Virus record (IMG/VR): IMGVR_UViG_3300042294_002635
Source: an uncultured virus (IMG/VR IMGVR_UViG_3300042294_002635)
Taxonomy: Duplodnaviria > Heunggongvirae > Uroviricota > Caudoviricetes
DNA length: 64,000 bases
Strand: one strand, 5' to 3'
Shown here: in pieces, positions 7,351 to 34,687 of the stretch
How positions within the stretch are numbered: the first letter of the stretch is position 1
Layout of the letters: every line of letters begins with the position of its first letter
Notes under the pieces: generated by a model
The model's input: the letters and a program-made list of their open reading frames with translations, nothing else
Told to the model about the DNA's origin: nothing
The model's database searches: none
Made by a program: the position numbers and the translations under genes

Positions 7351-7422
7351 GGCTGTATAGTTCAGCGGTAGAACAGCTCTTTCATACGGAGTGGGTCGCA
7401 GGTTCAAATCCTGCTACAGCTT
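7351..7422 (+). tRNA. tRNA-Met(CAT), elongator-like (Ile2 not excluded)
   Basis: Acceptor GGCTGTA/TACAGCT; anticodon arm GCTCT-TTCATAC-GGAGT; T arm GCAGG-TTCAAAT-CCTGC. Confidence 0.85.
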
Positions 7423-9156: not shown

Positions 9157-9229
9157 GCCGGCATAGTTCAGCGGACAGAACGCGAGCCTTCTAAGCTTGA
9201 TGTCGGGGGTTCAAATCCCTCTGCCGGTG
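9157..9229 (+). tRNA. tRNA-Arg(TCT)
   Basis: Acceptor GCCGGCA/TGCCGGT; anticodon arm CGAGC-CTTCTAA-GCTTG; T loop TTCAAAT. Confidence 0.9.
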
Positions 9230-10472: not shown

Positions 10473-10546
10473 GCCTCCTTAGCTCAGCGGATTAGAGCAC
10501 ACGGTTTCGGCCCGTGGTGTCAGAGGTTCGAATCCTCTAGGGGGCG
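10473..10546 (+). tRNA. tRNA-Arg(TCG)
   Basis: Acceptor GCCTCCT/AGGGGGC; anticodon arm CACGG-TTTCGGC-CCGTG; T arm AGAGG-TTCGAAT-CCTCT. Confidence 0.9.
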
Positions 10547-10618: not shown

Positions 10619-10692
10619 GCCCTGTTAGTTCAGTGGATTAGAACATCTCTTTCCTAAAGAGAATGTCGCAGGTTCAAATCCTGCACAGGGCG
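10619..10692 (+). tRNA. tRNA-Arg(CCT)
   Basis: Acceptor GCCCTGT/ACAGGGC; anticodon arm TCTCT-TTCCTAA-AGAGA. Confidence 0.9.
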
Positions 10693-12424: not shown

Positions 12425-12496
12425 ACCCACGTAGCACAGCGGTAGTGCAGCCGTTTCGTAAGCGGCAGGTCGCTGGTTCGAATCCAGTCGTGGGTT
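12425..12496 (+). tRNA. tRNA-Thr(CGT)
   Basis: Acceptor ACCCACG/CGTGGGT; anticodon arm GCCGT-TTCGTAA-GCGGC; T loop TTCGAAT. Confidence 0.9.
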
Positions 12497-26491: not shown

Positions 26492-28189
26492 GTCCTGTAG
26501 TTTCTTGGCCAGACCGGGAACGGTTAACCGTTTGATCCTGGGCGGTTTCCCGTCTTGTTTCTGCTCCGAAGAAACGGTATAGTATTTACATGAGCAGCGG
26601 TGCTCAGACACTTAGCCCCCTAACTCAGGAGACCCAATGGACTTTCAGGAATTTGTCGAATGGGCTTCCAACCAACCCCAGACCAAGGGTATTCGGTGGG
26701 GTCAACACCTTGTTAACCAGCTCATGAAGCTGAGCCCCACGGCTTATAGCCGAGTCCCAGAGGACCTAGACCCCTTCTACAGCGACACTCTTGTCCCAGG
26801 GTTCCTGGCCTTCCTAGGCGATAACTGGGGGAGTCTTACCACTCCGCTGTACCACCCTGAGATGGAGGAATGCGCTTAGTCCCCCGGTCAAACAAAGCCA
26901 GGGCAGCCCTGGAAAAGTCGATGGGCGGTGACAGCGCCGTTCGGCTGGAAAAACGCACTGGCAACAAAGTACTTGTCTCTTCCAAGAGTGGGTACTGCGT
27001 ATGGGTCGACCTCTCGGGAGACCCTAACTGGGATCTTGTCCTTTAACCCTGCCCCTATGAAGTTTATACTGAGCTTAATCCTCTGCGCCCTATGCTCGTT
27101 TTCTTCGGCACAACCTGCTTTCGCATACCACCCGGAGGGGTGGAGACCTTTCTGGTCAAAGGACGCTCAGAAAGTCACAGAGGAAAGCTGCAAGTTAATC
27201 GCTGGAGCACAAAGTGTTGGGACACAAACTTGGGAGTTTCTCTACAAGTGCCCCAACGGTGACTCCTTCTGGTCCGAGGTTCTCGTCCCCTTCAACCCCA
27301 CACTGCTTACTCCGCCCTTCTCACCAAATGGAAAAGCGTCACCAGACTCAGACTGAAGTCCCCTCGCAGACCTTGGGAGACCCCATAGCCCTGAGTAGCA
27401 CAGTTGTGGATGGCCTCTGGATCCTGATAATTGTGGCACTATCCCTCTCTGCTCTATTCAGGGTCTCCCGAAGCAGGGTCTTTCGCCAGAAGTCCCGGTT
27501 TTGACTACACTAAAAACACTCTCAGGTAACTCCCGCAAAGTCCATGGAACTCTATCGTAGTCTCACAGCTGAAGAAGAGGACTCTTTTCGTAGCTGGGCC
27601 AGGGAAAACTACGTCCCGTTTTCCGAGATAAAAGGATTCTGGCACCCTTCTGTGCAAGCAGAGTGTGTTCTCATGAATTCTGAAGCCGGTTTACTCACCC
27701 CATCTCACAGTTAAACTGTTAACACAATGTCTCACCTTGATTGTTCCGAAGATGACTACAAACTAAACCTTATGATTGAAGTGGATAACCTACTCTATAA
27801 GTTCCAAAAAGAAATACTCAGTACGAGGCAGGTTATCCCGTGGGCGAGCACCAGGGTTGGACCCTGCTACGCTGTCCCTCAGGACCAAGTTGTAGGGGTG
27901 TTTAAGGGGCTGAAGAAAGAGCTTTTAGCACTTTTAGTACGGAAGTACGACGTGAAACCGAAACTTGAGGGGCTTAATGTGTCATGACTGAAGGAGACCT
28001 AGAAAAGTTGGTAGAAAACGGAGACATTCTGAGCTACTCTTACTTAGAGGTTAAAGATTACCAGGGCTCACACTGCGGAGAATACCTACAACTCAATTTA
28101 CCGTCCGGAGCTTGCATAGGGGTAAGCTCGTGGTCAACTCCCGCCCCTGAAACGAGTGGGCTAAGAATAGGAGTTTATTAGGCGGACAG

Positions 28190-28515
28190 TCCTACCATAC
28201 GACTCTAAACTAGGGGTAGCTCTGGAAGATAGTGCCCTATACAGGGGTTCGAATCCCCTCACCTCCATTTGAGAACGTGACCGTCCCTTCTTCAACCTTC
28301 CGACTTACTGAGAAGGCAGGGTCACTGTGGGTTAAACTCCCACCTCTAGTCAAGGGGGTGCCATGGTCTCGCTAGGGTAAAGATGTCGCCTGAGTGAAAG
28401 CCGCTTGCATAAGCACAAAATAGACGCTAACAACATCGTCAAATTCGAGAGGATTGCCGTTGCCGTTTGAGCAACCGCACTCTGACTCATAACTCGGGGG
28501 GTTTCGGCCCCCTTA
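28190..28515 (+). ncRNA. ssrA: tmRNA, circularly permuted (two-piece) type; outer ends approximate
   Basis: T arm AGGGG-TTCGAAT-CCCCT and 3' strand CACCTCC-A (ends 28267) precede 5' strand GGGGGTG (28354), giving G3.U70; tag frame 28426-28470 = ANNIVKFERIAVAV*; 3' hairpin near 28496-28512. Confidence 0.9.
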
Positions 28516-29202
28516 CACCGCCAACTTTCCTGGCCAAAACAGCACCCTACACTCCAACCCACGCTGAAACACTGTGAACCTTGAACTAAAGGCCCTTAGT
28601 CCTTCAGGAAAGAAAAAGGCCAAGAAACTAATGTTGTACCCCGTAGAAATACGAAACTACGGTGTATTTAATTGGGCAGATTTCAAAAGTTCAGAAGACT
28701 TCTACCGGTTTAAGGTGGAGTGGGACACACACCAGGTCATGCGGGAGATCTTGTCTGGTTTGAACACCGAAGAGGTCACCCCGAATCCGACGAGCGACGC
28801 GGGAATTAACTGGACGAACTTGTCCGTGTCTCAAGAGAAAGTGTTTATTAACCTTGCCCGTATCATCCTGGACTTGAGGCAGAAAGCGGAAAACGCTGAA
28901 GAAGCGGCGAGAGAAGTCTCACGGCGGTTGGACAGAGTATGATAATGCTACTGAAGGGACCCGATGGGGGAAAATATATAGCCGACTGGACCCCTGATAG
29001 GGAGAGATGGCTAGTAACTGAGTTTGGCCCCCGAGTTGGTTCCGATGTGTTGCCGTCAGAGTGGTGGGACAAGGAAGCCAGAAATCACTGGGGACGATCC
29101 CAAACTTACGACACTCTTGAGGCGTTCACCGTACTAGCATCTCTCTAAGCCACCAACACGTTATCCTAACAGAACCAGGCAGAGCCCAAATCAGTAGGAA
29201 CA

Positions 29203-29898: not shown

Positions 29899-30134
29899 CA
29901 TCGAATGCTATCCTCGTTGATTTTAGACTCAACCGCCTGCCCCTGGTGCGGGTCCCCAACCTACACGTGGGGCAACGTACTTCCCGGTCAGTCTACACCA
30001 GGTCTAGGAGCCTACGACTCAAGGGAGCGGGAGCATCGCACTTGTGTAGAGTGTAAGGCCACTGTTTCTTAGTGCTACCTTGCTCCCCGCAAATAGCTCA
30101 GGTCCGTTCACTCCTCTTAAACCAACTTGGAAAA

Positions 30135-30995
30135 ATGACAACTTTTGACAAATGCCTCGGAGCCTTTATTGGCCTTGCAATTGGTGACGCGATGGGTGCG
30201 CCAGTGGAGTTTTCAGCCCCAGGGACATTCGAGCCAGTCACAGGCTACCGAGAAGGAGGACCCTTTAATCTGCCTTCAGGGTACTGGACGGACGACACAT
30301 CACAGGCTGTTTGCCTTGCCGAGTCTTTTATTCATTGCAATGGGCAGATCAATCTTGGAGACCAAATGCGTCGGTACTCCAACTGGTACGAGTACGGAAG
30401 GAACAGCTCAACAGGAGTCTGTTTTGACATCGGCAATGGAACACTCCGTGCAATTGAGACTTTTCTCGTTGAGGGGTCTTTGAGTCTCTATCCGGAGAAT
30501 TCGAAAGGAAACGGGTCTTTGATGCGTTTGTCCCCCGTTTCTATTGTTTACCACAAATCGAGTGAGGGGGACGCTGTAGCAGCTTGTGACGCGTCATCCT
30601 CAACAACCCATGGCCACTTGGCATCCGACCTATGCAAAGATCTCGGTCGTTTGCTGCACCGATACTTGAATGGTACGGGGGAGAAACCTGAAGTCTCGCC
30701 GGAGGGAATTGAAAATTCCGGGTACGCACCGAAGTCCTTAGACGCTGCTCTCTACCACTTTGGGTCAACTTCGTCCTTTAAAGAGGCCATCCTGCAGGCT
30801 GTGAACTATGGGGACGACTCAGACACGGTTGCTGCGATTACGGGGCAGCTAGCGGGTGCTTACTACGGGTATAAGGCTATACCAAAGCGGTGGATTTCAG
30901 GGTTGCACGACAGTGAAAGACTTTTGCTCATAGCAAGCACTTTGTACGACCTTTCGTTTGGGGCGGTTCCCCCCCCCCCCTTGTTTCTACTCTGA
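30135..30995 (+). CDS. ADP-ribosylglycohydrolase (DraG/ARH family)
   Basis: GLAIGDAMG.PVEF, WTDDTS, GNGSLMR, GDDSDTVAAITGQLAGA. Confidence 0.92.
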   Translation: MTTFDKCLGAFIGLAIGDAMGAPVEFSAPGTFEPVTGYREGGPFNLPSGYWTDDTSQAVCLAESFIHCNGQINLGDQMRRYSNWYEYGRNSSTGVCFDIGNGTLRAIETFLVEGSLSLYPENSKGNGSLMRLSPVSIVYHKSSEGDAVAACDASSSTTHGHLASDLCKDLGRLLHRYLNGTGEKPEVSPEGIENSGYAPKSLDAALYHFGSTSSFKEAILQAVNYGDDSDTVAAITGQLAGAYYGYKAIPKRWISGLHDSERLLLIASTLYDLSFGAVPPPPLFLL

Positions 30996-31453: not shown

Positions 31454-32674
31454 GTGCTTGCTTCGGTTGTACGAATGTACGGAGAAATTTCCCCTGATAC
31501 CCTGGCGTTTGTGCACGACTTTACCCGTTGTGTGAAACCGGACGGTGGGGTGTACGGTACGGCAGGACAATGTCGCAAGGGGGTGGAGTCCGCAAAGGAA
31601 ACTCGCAGCATTCGACGAGAGTCTGTGCTTAAGAGTGTAGAACTTTACCAAAAGAATGGCTCTGACGATCTAAACAAGAATCTAAAGACTCTTGAGGGAA
31701 TGCTCTTGTCAAAGCCGGGGTACCGCACACATCTCACTGAGAGTGCACTTACCGCCTTGCGGTATCTTCGCCTAAAGTCCCACTTGGAGAAGAAGGCAGA
31801 GCAGACACAACAAAAGGGAGCTCTTCAGAGTCAATACGAAGAATTAGGGAGAAACTCACCGAAGTACACGCAAACACCCGGATCGAGCAAACCTTTACCG
31901 AAAGCCACGGTTGAGAAAGAGGTTGAGCTTCTTGAAAAAGAACTTGAAGCACTGAAGAAAAGAGTCCGAGCAATAGGAGAGCCTACCGACGACGTGTCAA
32001 GAGAGAAGCTTTTACACCTGCAAAAGGAAGGTATGGAGCTCGGTCGAACACTTTCGAGTGCTCGCAAGGGCACTCTGTTACCACCGATTCTCACGTCTGT
32101 GTACGAACGACAAGGTTTTCATGCTCGACCGGAAGTTGTTGCAACACGATCGGAACTAGAGTCAAGAAAGGATATAGCTAGGAACCCTGACGGAAGGCCA
32201 ATTGTAGCCTATCGCGGCGTAAGTTCAAATGAGTTTTCCTTGCAGTTCAAAGGTGGTGGTCCAGACGGAGACAAGCACTTTCCTGGTGGCGGGATTTACG
32301 GGAGTGGGAGTTACTCTGCTTCTTCACCTTCATCTGGCAAGGTTAAACATGATAAGTGGGCCCAAGAGACAGCGAAAGACTATACAGGTGACTGGAGAAA
32401 CGCCACAACCATGGTTTCAGCTTTTGCATTTCGGTCCGACGCACGACTCGTTCAGTTTGAGGGGGAGGGGAAGCAGTTTAAGCAGTGGGAAGAAGAAACA
32501 TTGAAAAAGGCAAGAGAGATAACAGGGTATGACCATCACGATGTTGGATCCGCCGCTGCATCACTCGGGATACATGCGTACAGAGTTCCTCAAACAGACG
32601 GCCAAGACTTCTGGGTTGTTCTCAACCGTGGAGCAATCATCGTAGCGAACGACCCTGAATTAACACCGGACTAA
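31454..32674 (+). CDS. leader-motif protein with putative C-terminal ADP-ribosyltransferase-like domain
   Basis: Leader DFTRCVKPDGGVYGTAGQCRKG; C-terminal 'AYRG...GGGIYGSGSYS...FWVVLNR'. Confidence 0.5.
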   Translation: MLASVVRMYGEISPDTLAFVHDFTRCVKPDGGVYGTAGQCRKGVESAKETRSIRRESVLKSVELYQKNGSDDLNKNLKTLEGMLLSKPGYRTHLTESALTALRYLRLKSHLEKKAEQTQQKGALQSQYEELGRNSPKYTQTPGSSKPLPKATVEKEVELLEKELEALKKRVRAIGEPTDDVSREKLLHLQKEGMELGRTLSSARKGTLLPPILTSVYERQGFHARPEVVATRSELESRKDIARNPDGRPIVAYRGVSSNEFSLQFKGGGPDGDKHFPGGGIYGSGSYSASSPSSGKVKHDKWAQETAKDYTGDWRNATTMVSAFAFRSDARLVQFEGEGKQFKQWEEETLKKAREITGYDHHDVGSAAASLGIHAYRVPQTDGQDFWVVLNRGAIIVANDPELTPD

Positions 32675-32827: not shown

Positions 32828-33016
32828 GTGAAAATCTCTCGCAGTGAGATCGCTTACGGCGAAGCAATGAAAAAGCTTTTCACAGCCCAGTGGAACATTC
32901 CTCAAGCAGCCGCTGCACTCGGAAAGCCAGCGAGAGAAGAAAGCTGGTAAGAAACGAAAGAATTATTCCGTGAATATTGCGTGGAACACATACCTATCGC
33001 CTTCAACGCCGGGTAG
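32828..33016 (+). pseudogene. small cyanophage-type gene with internal stop
   Basis: MKISRSEIAYGEAMKKLFTAQWNIPQAAAALG...SW*ETKELFREYC; TAA at 32948 is in frame. Confidence 0.45.
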
Positions 33017-33045
33017 TTTACCAACTCGAGAAAGGACTATACTGT

Positions 33046-33219
33046 GAAAGTCCTGAGACGTAAATACGTCGCCCATTATGAGTGAGTTCCTTGTCTTCAC
33101 AGACAAGGTAGGACTCGGAGCCTAACATTGCGCTCTTAAATAAAATGTGCCGTGGGAAAATGCACCTTGAAACAGGTGAGTGACCGTTTCCTATACGGAT
33201 GCCGAATTCTCTTTAGTAA
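33046..33219 (+). ncRNA. candidate structured 5' leader RNA upstream of lysozyme
   Basis: Helices AGTCCT/AGGACT, GACGTA/TACGTC, CCTTGTCT/AGACAAGG, CACCT/AGGTG, CCGTG/TACGG. Confidence 0.55.
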
Positions 33220-33858
33220 ATGCTCAACCTCACTACATTTGTGGCCGTTTCCCTCGTTGGAACTGCTGCAACCCCTTTCAGCAACACCGTTGCCGCTAGG
33301 GACATTGCCCCAGAAACAACTTTCGAATCGCGCTTCATTTGCACAGGCTGCGGTCCAATCAATTCTCTGCCGACTCTCGCTTACAAACTCACCCCTGAGC
33401 GTAGAGCTCTACTAAACACCATTCGCTTCGCCGAGGGAACCTGGAAAGAAGGCCATAATGACGGCTACCGGGTTGTATTCGGGGGTGGAATGGTATCCAC
33501 GCTAGACCGACACCCTAACCAAGTACGCTACTCGCCGCGTTATGCTAGCGCAGCAGCGGGGGCCTACCAGTTTCTGCCAAGTACTTGGTATGAGGCAGCC
33601 CGAAAGCTCAACCTGAGCGATTTCGGTCCCACTAACCAGGATCAGGCTGCCTTGTACTTAATCGAGCGACGCGACGCTTTGCACATCGCTGACTCTGGGA
33701 AGATTACCCCAACTCTACTCGCAAGACTCGCACCAGAATGGGCTTCCCTTCCAACTTACAATGGAAGCAGCTACTACGGTCAGCCGGTTAAAACCTACGA
33801 CAACCTTCGCCTCTTCTATGAGAACAACTTGGCGTTGTTGCGCCAGGAGGAAGGTTGA
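33220..33858 (+). CDS. lysozyme/muramidase (lambda R-like, GH24/GH104) with N-terminal signal-like sequence
   Basis: ALLNTIRFAEGT, GY...FGG, AAAGAYQFL..TW, QDQAALYLI, EWASLP. Confidence 0.9.
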   Translation: MLNLTTFVAVSLVGTAATPFSNTVAARDIAPETTFESRFICTGCGPINSLPTLAYKLTPERRALLNTIRFAEGTWKEGHNDGYRVVFGGGMVSTLDRHPNQVRYSPRYASAAAGAYQFLPSTWYEAARKLNLSDFGPTNQDQAALYLIERRDALHIADSGKITPTLLARLAPEWASLPTYNGSSYYGQPVKTYDNLRLFYENNLALLRQEEG

Positions 33859-34013
33859 TGGGCGGTTTCCCGAACTTTACCTTGGGCCTTTCACGAGCTA
33901 AACTTGGGTCCAGCCTGAAACGGCTTCAGCTAGGTATACCTTCGCTGGGCCAACGGGCACTGAGCCGTGGTTGCGTAATGCAACGAACACGGATGTTGAA
34001 CTCTACTTTTTTC

Positions 34014-34367
34014 ATGCGTCTTACAAGACTCGCTTCATTCTTTCTCGCCGCCGGACTTCTCTCCGGAGCACCCGCTCAAGCCAAGCAGTGCGGTCAAGCC
34101 AGCTGGTACGGTCCAGGCCTCTACGGAAATAAAACTGCCAACGGGGAGACTTTCCGACCCGGAACCATGACCGCTGCTCACCCGTACCTCCCCCTCGGGT
34201 CTTGGGTGCGAGTTGTCAATCGCGACAACGGTCTTATTGCCGACGTTCGCATTAACGACCGAGGACCCTATGTCGGTGGACGAATCATCGACCTGGGGCA
34301 CGGATCTGCTCAGCGTCTTCGAGTAACTGAGAGTGGACTCGCTAACGTTTGCATCACTCGCATTTAA
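34014..34367 (+). CDS. rlpA: RlpA-family septal ring lytic transglycosylase (DPBB)
   Basis: GQASWYGPG..G.KTANGE, TAAH..LPLG, VRINDRGPY..GRIIDL. Confidence 0.9.
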   Translation: MRLTRLASFFLAAGLLSGAPAQAKQCGQASWYGPGLYGNKTANGETFRPGTMTAAHPYLPLGSWVRVVNRDNGLIADVRINDRGPYVGGRIIDLGHGSAQRLRVTESGLANVCITRI

Positions 34368-34420
34368 CCCCGTAGGGTGGTAACTTCGGTTGTCACCCTT
34401 TCCCATAGCTGTCCTGCCTA

Positions 34421-34687
34421 ATGATTTTCTACGACTCAACCCACGCCCAACGATTTGGGACTCAATTGTGCGAAGCACGGCTTTCTCAGGGATGGTCCAA
34501 GCAGGACATTGCGTTTGCCGCACAAATACCCGTAGAACTTCTTCGAAAGATTGAGCGAGGCTCCGAGGTAGACGTGGGGTTTGTGGCAGATGTTGCAAGA
34601 GTGCTCGGGATTGTATTCACAATACTGCCTACCCGTGCAACACCGTTTTTCACCATCGAATGTAATTCTCTTGAGGTTAGTCCATGA
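34421..34687 (+). CDS. XRE-family HTH protein
   Basis: 'ARLSQGWSKQDIA.AA.I....L.KIERG'. Confidence 0.75.
   Translation: MIFYDSTHAQRFGTQLCEARLSQGWSKQDIAFAAQIPVELLRKIERGSEVDVGFVADVARVLGIVFTILPTRATPFFTIECNSLEVSP

Follow-up and report, generated by a model that had tools for sequence, protein, structure and literature searches.

Why do two adjacent genes for peptidoglycan enzymes in one phage genome each stand behind a long leader that ends in nearly the same way? The stretch analysed here (the window, 64,000 nucleotides (nt) of an uncultured Caudoviricetes virus, IMG/VR record IMGVR_UViG_3300042294_002635) encodes a secreted lysozyme followed by an RlpA-like protein. An earlier note, made from the sequence alone, pointed out the resemblance between the two leaders and proposed that a cis-regulatory RNA, possibly an unnamed riboswitch class, times lysis or wall remodelling. 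We find that both leaders are copies of one phage-borne structured 5' mRNA leader family, in a long form at the lysozyme gene and in a reduced short form at rlpA. The family is an uncatalogued, covarying cyanophage leader RNA tied to exported peptidoglycan enzymes, and it is more general than the earlier note could see. We regard the presence of a conserved structured RNA of this family as nearly certain at the lysozyme site and as very probable at the rlpA site.

Within the window, the block described upstream of both genes is there: it reads TACGGATGCCGAATTCT at 33194-33210 and CACGGATGTTGAACTCT at 33988-34004, each copy ends 9 nt before the ATG (33220 and 34014), and paired CCGTG and YACGG enclose an internal hairpin in each leader, as had been said. 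The degenerate 16-mer ACGGATGNNGAANTCT has exactly two perfect matches when both strands of the 64 kb are searched; with up to two mismatches there are 4 matches, compared to 1.26 expected. Two descriptions held in part. The leaders had been called hairpin-rich, and hairpins are present, but single-sequence folding is unexceptional (z = -1.79 for the lysozyme leader and -0.59 for the rlpA leader), so richness in hairpins is no evidence alone. GAGCC had been reported in both leaders; at rlpA it is contiguous with CCGTG (GAGCCGTG, the family consensus), whereas the corresponding bases at the lysozyme gene are GTGCCGTG, and the GAGCC cited for that leader (33118-33122) is part of a separate hairpin, P5. 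Because a 13-of-16 match combined with unremarkable folding could be chance, the case rests on comparison with relatives.

The nearest record, G001, is identical throughout the region and hence uninformative. Farther out, lysozyme leaders of about 170 nt lie behind sigma-70-like promoters at 11 viral loci (L006-L016) and 4 metagenome loci (L166-L169), all with the same gene pair. Unexpectedly, a hidden Markov model of the lysozyme leaders also matched further viral contigs, immediately upstream of distant RlpA homologues. A first, looser DNA pattern gave chance matches for the most part; the DNA pattern scan of viral contigs returned at least 120 stretches with 82 unique cores among the matches listed, of which three that had no flanks and no start codon (L372, L427 and L438) were dropped. 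The covariance model used below, R1, was made from 38 long-form leaders from other loci at less than 88% identity and has 14 base pairs; its seed included two lysozyme leaders of the window clade (L002 and L010), no rlpA leader and no short form.

R1 has two matches only on the two strands of the window, one in each leader (Table 1). At least 104 distinct copies (105 matches) were gathered from viral and metagenome contigs, including the Synechococcus phages S-PM2 and S-SRM01. Among the 69 loci of RlpA relatives that were fetched by protein alone and lie outside the close clade, 32 carry the motif just upstream of rlpA, 31 strongly and one with an expectation value (E) of 0.09. By comparison, R1 has no match in about 0.48 Mb of sequence from 148 loci, 72 of them viral and 76 from metagenomes, that surround distant relatives of the window-type lysozyme. 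Of the two complete relatives, G003 (277 kb) and G004 (279 kb), neither has matches outside these leader sites. Each isolate has a single site, which precedes S-PM2p160 (annotated 'lipoprotein precursor') in S-PM2 and gp278 in S-SRM01; a blastn search of isolate phages with the 90-nt motif, which has low sensitivity, found DSL-LC03 alone. The motif occurs in one or two copies per genome.

Covariation and conservation among homologous leaders, on which the original proposal had been made to depend, are both present. Across the 104 distinct copies, 13 of the 14 base pairs show changes on both sides, and 90.3% of the cells are paired, compared to 77.2% after shuffling. The covariation score is 0.435, against 0.195 for shuffled data; none of 500 shuffles scored as high, and controls with slid partners gave 0.07-0.16. 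Helix P6b is 97% paired, and individual positions show as many as four pair types (AU:61, UA:21, GC:11 and CG:7 at one pair). In the loci found by protein, P6 varies as CCCAG/UUGGG, CCGGA/UCCGG, CCAGA/UCUGG, CUGGG/CCCAG, CCGAG/UCGG and UCGUG/CACGA. P7 usually has a GNRA loop and covaries at its two apical pairs. Besides P6 and P6b, a mutual-information scan for further pairs returned only one possible mini-helix, GG/CC, in the 3' loop, where the alignment is unreliable. We rejected a pseudoknot between the upstream block AGAUUUUGA and the tail UCGAAUUCU, which pair in some sequences and, judged by eye, lose the pairing where the upstream block varies. The proposal of a shared cis-regulatory RNA is therefore supported by conserved structure with compensatory changes, by a location that is always on the strand of the gene and about 10 nt ahead of a peptidoglycan-enzyme start, by a tally of more than 100 distinct copies and by a spread over at least two unrelated phage lineages.

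The consensus core is P6 (CCGUG/YACGG) with the 5' flank G(A/U)GC; it encloses P6b and a GNRA-capped P7 in the long form, or a plain hairpin in the short form. On the 3' side of P6 there follow an invariant AUG (105 of 105 aligned copies), two variable bases, GAAUUCU, about 9-10 A/U-rich bases and a start codon without a Shine-Dalgarno sequence. This AUG lies 21 or 22 nt from the start codon and is often out of frame, so it cannot be a general start codon. Farther upstream, AUGAG is found in 88 of the 104 leaders, and in 65 it opens a three-codon mini-open reading frame (mini-ORF), AUG-AGN-NNN-UGA, 26-27 nt before P6. As (U)UAUGAG it forms a 7-nt hairpin loop in the window clade, in the distant locus L029 and in some T4-like leaders; in most T4-like phages it is the mini-ORF.

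Read 5' to 3', the lysozyme leader consists of a P1-P4 junction, P5, a linker from UUAAAY to UGUG, the P6/P6b/P7 domain, GGAUG-YY-GAAUUCU and the start codon. It fits all family features, with a full-length R1 match (69.4 bits, E 1e-15), its clade having been in the seed. The 5' junction is a cloverleaf whose helix P3 carries an invariant 7-nt loop, UUAUGAG (33076-33082). Independent minimum free energy (MFE) folds recover the junction and P5 in 8 of 10 sequences, and the MFE fold of L029 has the same architecture with every helix different in sequence and the UUAUGAG loop retained. Compensatory changes in the cloverleaf are visible in the clade alignment: P2 is GACG/CGUC in the window clade with a variant GACU/AGUC. 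Among the lysozyme leaders, P6 is CCGU/ACGG in the window clade with a variant CCGA/UCGG, P6b changes from GGGAAA/UUUCC to GGGAU/AUCC or GGGGAA/UUCCC, and the P5 stem stays paired as it changes (GGGCA/UGCCC in L011, GAUGC/GCGUC in L014). Per-lineage folds and the covariance model were used here, since RNAalifold gave poor 3' structure on a MAFFT alignment of the full leaders, owing to misalignment. The cloverleaf is not a tRNA or tRNA-like gene by our searches: ARAGORN and the Rfam tRNA model made no call at 33050-33114, and the P4 loop is unconserved. The position of the promoter is kept in relatives, for example as TTGACT-N17-TATAAT in L011. RNA-library contigs cover both leaders; those from two runs of one study start at 33057 and 33059, which, being contigs only, is a weak hint.

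The rlpA copy has the core features of a short form and scores 23.9 bits with R1 (E 0.0014 over 128 kb, a rough calibration), with the copy outside the seed. Elsewhere, short forms that are the sole copy before Phage_lysozyme2 genes score 41-48 bits. The same rlpA element passes R1 at L007, L010, L013, L016 and L166, and the L016 leader shows a compensatory P6 change (UCGUG/CACGA). Hairpin H1 keeps GCCUG/CAGGC in relatives, with shorter loops. Upstream of it, the box GGCGGTTTCCCGAACTTTAC is near-invariant in nucleotides in five lineages, and its 17-nt spacing is kept as TTTACT-N17-TACAAT in L010 and TTTACA-N17-TATCAT in L016; because RNA-library contigs (three runs, one study) begin at 33886-33896, upstream of its -10, the promoter in this box is only a candidate. 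The earlier note overlooked that the rlpA leader sits in a frame held open from the lysozyme stop in all relatives. In 10 of 10 relatives this frame (33858-34013) is open; it measures 123-156 nt, in each case a multiple of 3, and the two alternative frames are for the most part interrupted by stops.

The earlier note could not place the element in a known family by eye, and our searches yielded none. A scan of the window leaders against Rfam 15, including ydaO (RF00379), T-box, the lysM/M23 motifs and the c-di-GMP classes, gave no match at E up to 10, nor did those of 9 related loci with E up to 1; the sole gathering-level Rfam matches in the window are tRNAs and a permuted transfer-messenger RNA (tmRNA). 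The example of c-di-AMP control offered at first did not carry over to this locus: the ydaO family has no match at the leaders, and neither do motifs of the lysM/M23 type. We also considered a T-box, with the AUG as 'specifier' and a UGGN, and set it aside, as there is no Rfam T-box match and the 3' internal loop does not generally contain UGG. A full-text literature search found no description of the motif, and passages of Weinberg 2010 and 2017, their supplements not included, name other cyanophage motifs (wcaG, manA and PhotoRC-II) and orphan lysM/M23 leaders without this one among them.

What do these leaders precede? The open reading frames (ORFs) downstream of the 104 copies comprise 60 Phage_lysozyme2-like, 32 RlpA-like and 10 lambda-lysozyme-like ones (the window clade), and 2 are cut by contig ends, so that all 102 that can be assessed encode peptidoglycan enzymes. 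Representative proteins match Phage_lysozyme2 (PF18013/phrog_512) in 12 of 17 cases and DPBB_1/RlpA-like (phrog_7930) in 5 of 17, and the N-termini of the downstream proteins all look, by eye, hydrophobic and signal-peptide-like. The window's lambda-type lysozyme and the Phage_lysozyme2 of T4-like cyanophages differ in their catalytic domains, and the window lysozyme (33220-33390) shares a signal peptide and ICxGC module with a Phage_lysozyme2 protein (L365:971-1200; 39% over 36 residues, E 7e-6). This indicates, at the level of sequence, domain swapping behind a common leader/export cassette.

The carriers are T4-like cyanophages and unrelated jumbo phages of about 280 kb. T4-type Gp23 and RegA are found in S-PM2 and S-SRM01 and are both absent from the jumbo phages G003, G004 and G005, so the motif spans unrelated phages. 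With stricter filters, R1 found no copy in 151 sampled genomes of the phylum containing cyanobacteria, and a pattern scan of the genomes of 185,579 species gave one true copy among the 120 matches listed, on a 1.7-kb contig (L548) of an unclassified metagenome-assembled genome. Some surroundings of the copies are worth recording. Five T4-like contigs (L040, L044, L056, L064 and L082) have a phage tRNA array next to the motif-bearing rlpA, about 300-2500 nt downstream; L056 has a wcaG RNA about 2 kb downstream of its motif copy; and L029 has a cyanobacterial-type tmRNA upstream. T4-like leaders (L280, L424, L398 and many others) have a sigma-70-like TTGACA-N17-TATAAT whose spacer holds a CTAAATA late-promoter-like box, directly followed by a GC stem and U-run resembling an intrinsic terminator, about 30-60 nt upstream of the AUGAG block; this stem and U-run could be an attenuator or a 5' stabiliser.

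Several points weigh against reading both leaders as functional members of one family. The rlpA copy is a weak match (24 bits, with a roughly calibrated E); the corresponding element fails R1 at L008, L009, L011, L012, L014 and L015; the L011 leader has lost the 3' strand and GGAUG, and those of L012 and L014 carry two P6 mismatches; and the whole rlpA leader lies within a frame that selection seems to hold open. Because this copy is weak, is lost or broken in some close relatives and sits in an open frame, its regulatory role may be vestigial. For the family at large, the DNA pattern by which most copies were gathered prescribes CCGTG/ACGG and the tail, and the apparent conservation there is biased; the covariation comes from an alignment fitted to the model, of related sequences, in a pattern-biased collection. 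A possible closing helix, UAGAG/UUCUA, is 86% paired, hardly covaries and is absent from the window copies. The expression evidence consists of metatranscriptome contigs without ends or strand, one run of which bridges both predicted transcript starts. Lastly, the leader travels with a similar signal-peptide/N-terminal module. Because leader and export module precede different wall-active domains, the gene association could partly reflect one mobile cassette, which tempers the idea of fully independent recruitment.

How might such a leader work? Only about 10 nt separate the motif from the start codon, which excludes control by a terminator and leaves control of translation or of stability. 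We give about two chances in three (roughly 0.65) to the motif being a cis-acting translational control element at a start codon that lacks a Shine-Dalgarno sequence. By prediction, the start region is fairly open (mean unpaired probability over 102 leaders 0.52-0.67 between -20 and +19, compared to 0.22-0.5 inside the motif), which suggests a default-on state that would be closed by a bound factor or by a stabilised outer pairing. The recognised core is probably the P6 junction and its flanks (5' GNGC, 3' AUG-NN-GAAUUCU), because the inner helices are dispensable in short forms; the plain hairpin that takes the place of P6b/P7 there suits a small junction-plus-tail site no less well than it does a large aptamer. 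The motif could serve as a docking site for a host-common factor (a metabolite, the ribosome or initiator tRNA, a host protein or an RNase) that gates ribosome access, and such gating would hold the synthesis of dangerous, Sec-exported wall hydrolases off or on as the stage of infection requires. Any such factor is probably host-derived, because it must be common to unrelated phages. In the window clade there would probably be a second route to rlpA as well, in which ribosomes restart at the ATG at 33858 and read the leader in frame, and the extra RlpA N-terminus would be lost together with the signal peptide. The simplest reconciliation may be that the frame must stay open and the peptide is nevertheless unconstrained, because the read-through extension is removed with the signal peptide.

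Other explanations deny the RNA any part, at one or both sites. The likeness could be chance, or the element could act purely as DNA, as a promoter or as a recombination cassette of the PeSL kind. For two leaders of about 150 nt, agreement at 13 of 16 positions is indeed not very improbable alone (we estimate about 0.1), and promoter-plus-stem-loop cassettes do shuffle in T4-type phages (PMC4122927); set against these are the compensatory changes, strand specificity and fixed start distance in more than 100 copies, and the lack of other R1 matches both in the control loci (about 0.5 Mb) and in the remainder of complete phage genomes, which leave this explanation scarcely credible. A decidedly improbable alternative, confined to one site, is that the rlpA 'leader' is plain coding sequence for an N-terminal extension of RlpA from 33858, and that the likeness comes from peptide or DNA conservation. 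The open frame in all ten relatives, its start overlapping the lysozyme stop (TGATG), length differences in multiples of 3 and an Arg retained through CGG, CGA and AGA codons are what one would expect of it. The frame, however, shows no third-position excess of substitutions, with counts by codon position of [1,9,5], [8,8,3] and [4,6,2], unlike the adjacent rlpA proper with [1,2,16], [7,6,35] and [15,10,51]. Moreover, the motif is clearly non-coding in the lysozyme leader, where there are in-frame stops, and in most other copies, with their frame-breaking 21/22-nt spacers; homologous RlpA genes elsewhere begin at an ATG about 10 nt after the motif; and read-through is compatible with an RNA element, because the extension would go with the signal peptide.

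The remaining explanations accept an RNA element and differ in what it does. It is possible, if doubtful, that the motif is a translational operator or standby site bound by a protein or the ribosome, with UUAUGAG and the AUG after P6 as decoy or entry starts for the 30S subunit and initiator tRNA. The small core consists of a hairpin base and a single-stranded tail that ends at the start codon; the AUG after P6 never varies, and the upstream AUGAG is frequent and mostly opens a mini-ORF. UUAUGAG is also the exact complement of the loop CUCAUAA in a tRNA-Met(CAU) arm, GGGCUCAUAACCC, which occurs once per genome in 5 of 5 sampled genomes of the phylum containing cyanobacteria (ARAGORN confirmed a tRNA at 3 of 3 loci) and is of the type that marks the initiator tRNA. 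The base before AUGAG varies (U 37, A 24 and C 16 of 88), however, so the 7-nt complementarity is not general and is a lead rather than a result, and the conserved tail has no excess complementarity to cyanobacterial 16S rRNA (-18.5 compared to -19.3 +/- 2.1 kcal/mol shuffled). Nor can RegA, as in the T4 RegA operator, be the common factor: PF01818 is absent from G003 (98% complete), G004 (100% complete) and G005, so RegA is not a universal partner because the window-type jumbo phages lack it. A true small-molecule riboswitch, in which the P6 junction, internal loops and tail bind a host metabolite or second messenger and alter access to the start, would be a special case of translational control and is on the unlikely side. 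The motif does carry the aptamer-type signature of conserved unpaired nucleotides beside covarying stems that is typical of an orphan riboswitch, its gene class is functionally coherent across unrelated phages, no phage-encoded factor common to both lineages was found (RegA being absent from the jumbo clade), and wall-hydrolase leaders are a known riboswitch context, as the c-di-AMP-related lysM/M23 motifs (PMC5737381) illustrate. Yet a plain hairpin replaces P6b/P7 in short forms that are the sole copy of their contigs, the conserved core is very small, the mutual-information scan and a check of the outer helix found no covarying pseudoknot or alternative pairing, and the motif was not found in the 151 sampled genomes of the host phylum. 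Riboswitches are usually common to the hosts of phages too. Finally, an RNase III or RNase E site, or a protective structure, could set the half-life of the mRNA or free the start by cleavage in the 3'-side loop. The long imperfect helix with an asymmetric 3' loop and then an A/U-rich single strand would suit this, as would the terminator-like hairpin and U-run right behind the promoter in T4-like copies; but in a genome of 200-280 kb a general stability element should not be limited to one or two genes for peptidoglycan enzymes, and this restriction makes a processing role improbable compared to translational control.

Table 1. Features at and around the lysozyme and rlpA leaders, in window coordinates.
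Feature	Positions	Strand	Details
Promoter of lysozyme leader, sigma-70/T4-early-like	33015-33043	+	-35 around TTTACC (33017-33022), -10 TATACT (33038-33043); read from sequence
5' four-way junction (cloverleaf)	33050-33114	+	P1 33050-55/33109-14; P2 33057-61/33066-70; P3; P4 33089-33108
P5 hairpin and linker	33117-33136	+	GGAGC/GCUCU, then conserved UUAAAY; MFE folds
Long-form family motif (R1 match)	33135-33224	+	P6 33150-54/33194-98; P6b 33155-59/33187-91; P7 hairpin 33163-33178
Long-form 3' part	within 33135-33224	+	AUG 33199-33201 (invariant); GAAUUCU 33204-33210; start codon 33220; read from sequence
Secreted lysozyme gene	33220-33858	+	212 residues; signal-peptide-like N-terminus, ICxGC linker module, phage-lambda-type lysozyme domain
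Frame running into rlpA	33858-34013	+	opens at an ATG overlapping the lysozyme stop (TGATG, 33856-33860); in frame with rlpA; whole rlpA leader inside
Nucleotide-conserved box GGCGGTTTCCCGAACTTTAC	33861-33904	+	promoter-like TTTACC (33876-81)-N17-TAAACT (33899-904)
Hairpin H1 of rlpA leader	33913-33958	+	GCCUG...CGGGC; stem lengthened by a clade-specific insertion
Short-form family motif (R1 match)	33951-34018	+	P6 33965-69/33988-92; inner hairpin 33971-75/33980-84
Short-form 3' part	within 33951-34018	+	AUG 33993-95; GAACUCU 33998-34004 (one change from GAAUUCU); 9-nt spacer; start codon 34014; read from sequence
RlpA-like protein gene	34014-34367	+	double-psi beta-barrel (DPBB_1); PF03330 E 2e-19, phrog_7930 E 6e-27; signal peptide with cleavage between MRLTRLASFFLAAGLLSGAPAQA and K, placed by eye

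The two genes themselves are readily classified. The lysozyme matches the phrog_90 endolysins (E 2e-33), and its residues 57-188 match PDB chains 1AM7/3D3D, 'lysozyme', at E 8e-18. Directly 3' of the rlpA stop, at 34373-34400 (+), a perfect GC-rich hairpin resembles a terminator for the lysozyme-rlpA unit; a weak match of this hairpin to a togavirus frameshift element (19 bits, gathering score 40) is spurious. Beyond it lie a small helix-turn-helix (HTH_3) regulator (34421-34687, +) and, overlapping that, an 81-residue pilin-like phage protein (34684-34929, +) with a prepilin-type N-terminal methylation motif (PF07963). On the other side, an ADP-ribosylglycohydrolase gene (30072-30995, +; PF03747, E 7e-60) in the phage genome is followed by a large ORF (31454-32674) whose C-terminal part resembles the 'minor head protein' PHROG phrog_16619.

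The window is phage DNA with five tRNA genes and a permuted tmRNA, and the nearest records are IMG/VR contigs of 190-280 kb; blastn of the window region against known-phage DNA gave no match. The phage-encoded tmRNA lies at 28178-28561 (+), with an Rfam tmRNA_permuted match of 68 bits at 28212-28470 and an ARAGORN tag peptide ANNIVKFERIAVAV. The tRNA genes (+) are at 1-57, 7351-7422, 9157-9229, 10473-10546, 10619-10692 and 12425-12496, counting a partial one at the window edge, and comprise one CAU (called Met), three Arg (TCT, TCG and CCT) and one Thr (CGT). The CAU tRNA lacks, by eye, an anticodon stem with three GC pairs and is probably no initiator.

Cyanophages kill a large share of aquatic cyanobacteria, and the timing of cell-wall breakdown is little understood; many cyanophages are not known to have a recognisable holin-endolysin cassette. 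The leader family is an orphan structured RNA class new to curated libraries, and its presence in the model phage S-PM2 and in freshwater jumbo phages offers a concrete handle on this timing. It is tempting to speculate that unrelated cyanophages carry a sensor RNA (a riboswitch or a leader that senses initiator tRNA or the ribosome) by which a host signal times the synthesis of Sec-exported wall hydrolases, with the UUAUGAG loop and the AUG as part of the sensing, an idea that we hold tentatively and with the odds against it. If it is true, lysis timing or wall remodelling would be controlled at the RNA level independently of holins. If a ligand exists, the element would be a phage-borne riboswitch class without a copy in the 151 sampled host-phylum genomes, which would be unusual.

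How does the family compare with systems already known? T4 lysozyme (gene e) is under translational control by a hairpin that sequesters the ribosome-binding site and contains an internal late promoter. The likeness lies in a structured leader, on the mRNA of a phage lysozyme, that would set the time of translation; the present helix, in contrast, has no late-promoter-like box inside, and the structure is far more elaborate and is also found at RlpA genes. We rejected a sequestering hairpin of the gene e type for these leaders, as 21 nt lie between the 3' strand of P6 and the start, and the start region is predicted to be mostly unpaired (0.52-0.67). Classical phage translational operators, such as those of T4 gene 43, the regA targets and the MS2 replicase operator, consist of a hairpin and an adjacent single strand. 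Similarly, the present motif combines a small hairpin base with a conserved single strand that reaches the start codon, at few genes per genome. RegA, however, is absent from the phage lineage of the window.

PeSL cassettes of T4-type phages (PMC4122927) join an early promoter to a stem-loop and go with a modular shuffling of genes. They share with the present leaders a sigma-70-like early promoter (TTGACA/TTTACW-N17-TAYWAT) and a stem-loop, and here a leader and signal-peptide module stands before different catalytic domains. PeSLs as described there are generic, with many per genome before unrelated genes, whereas the present motif is found once or twice per genome and only before peptidoglycan-enzyme genes, and its covarying helices go beyond a mere terminator hairpin. 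Like wcaG, manA and PhotoRC-II, cyanophage-borne RNA motifs reported by Weinberg et al. 2010 (PMC2864571), our leaders are candidate cis-regulatory RNAs on cyanophages; those motifs have other structures and go with sugar-metabolism and photosystem genes, and all are in Rfam and none matches here. Closest in context are ydaO and the orphan leader motifs lysM-TM7, lysM-Actino, lysM-Prevotella and M23, which precede cell-wall-degrading enzymes (Weinberg et al. 2017, PMC5737381). These too are structured 5' leaders of wall-degrading enzymes, known by covariation and context and, in several cases, without a proven ligand. Unlike them, with which it shares no sequence or structure match, the present motif is found essentially in phage contigs, and it has a core of its own: P6 with AUG-NN-GAAUUCU, ending about 10 nt ahead of a start codon that lacks a Shine-Dalgarno sequence.

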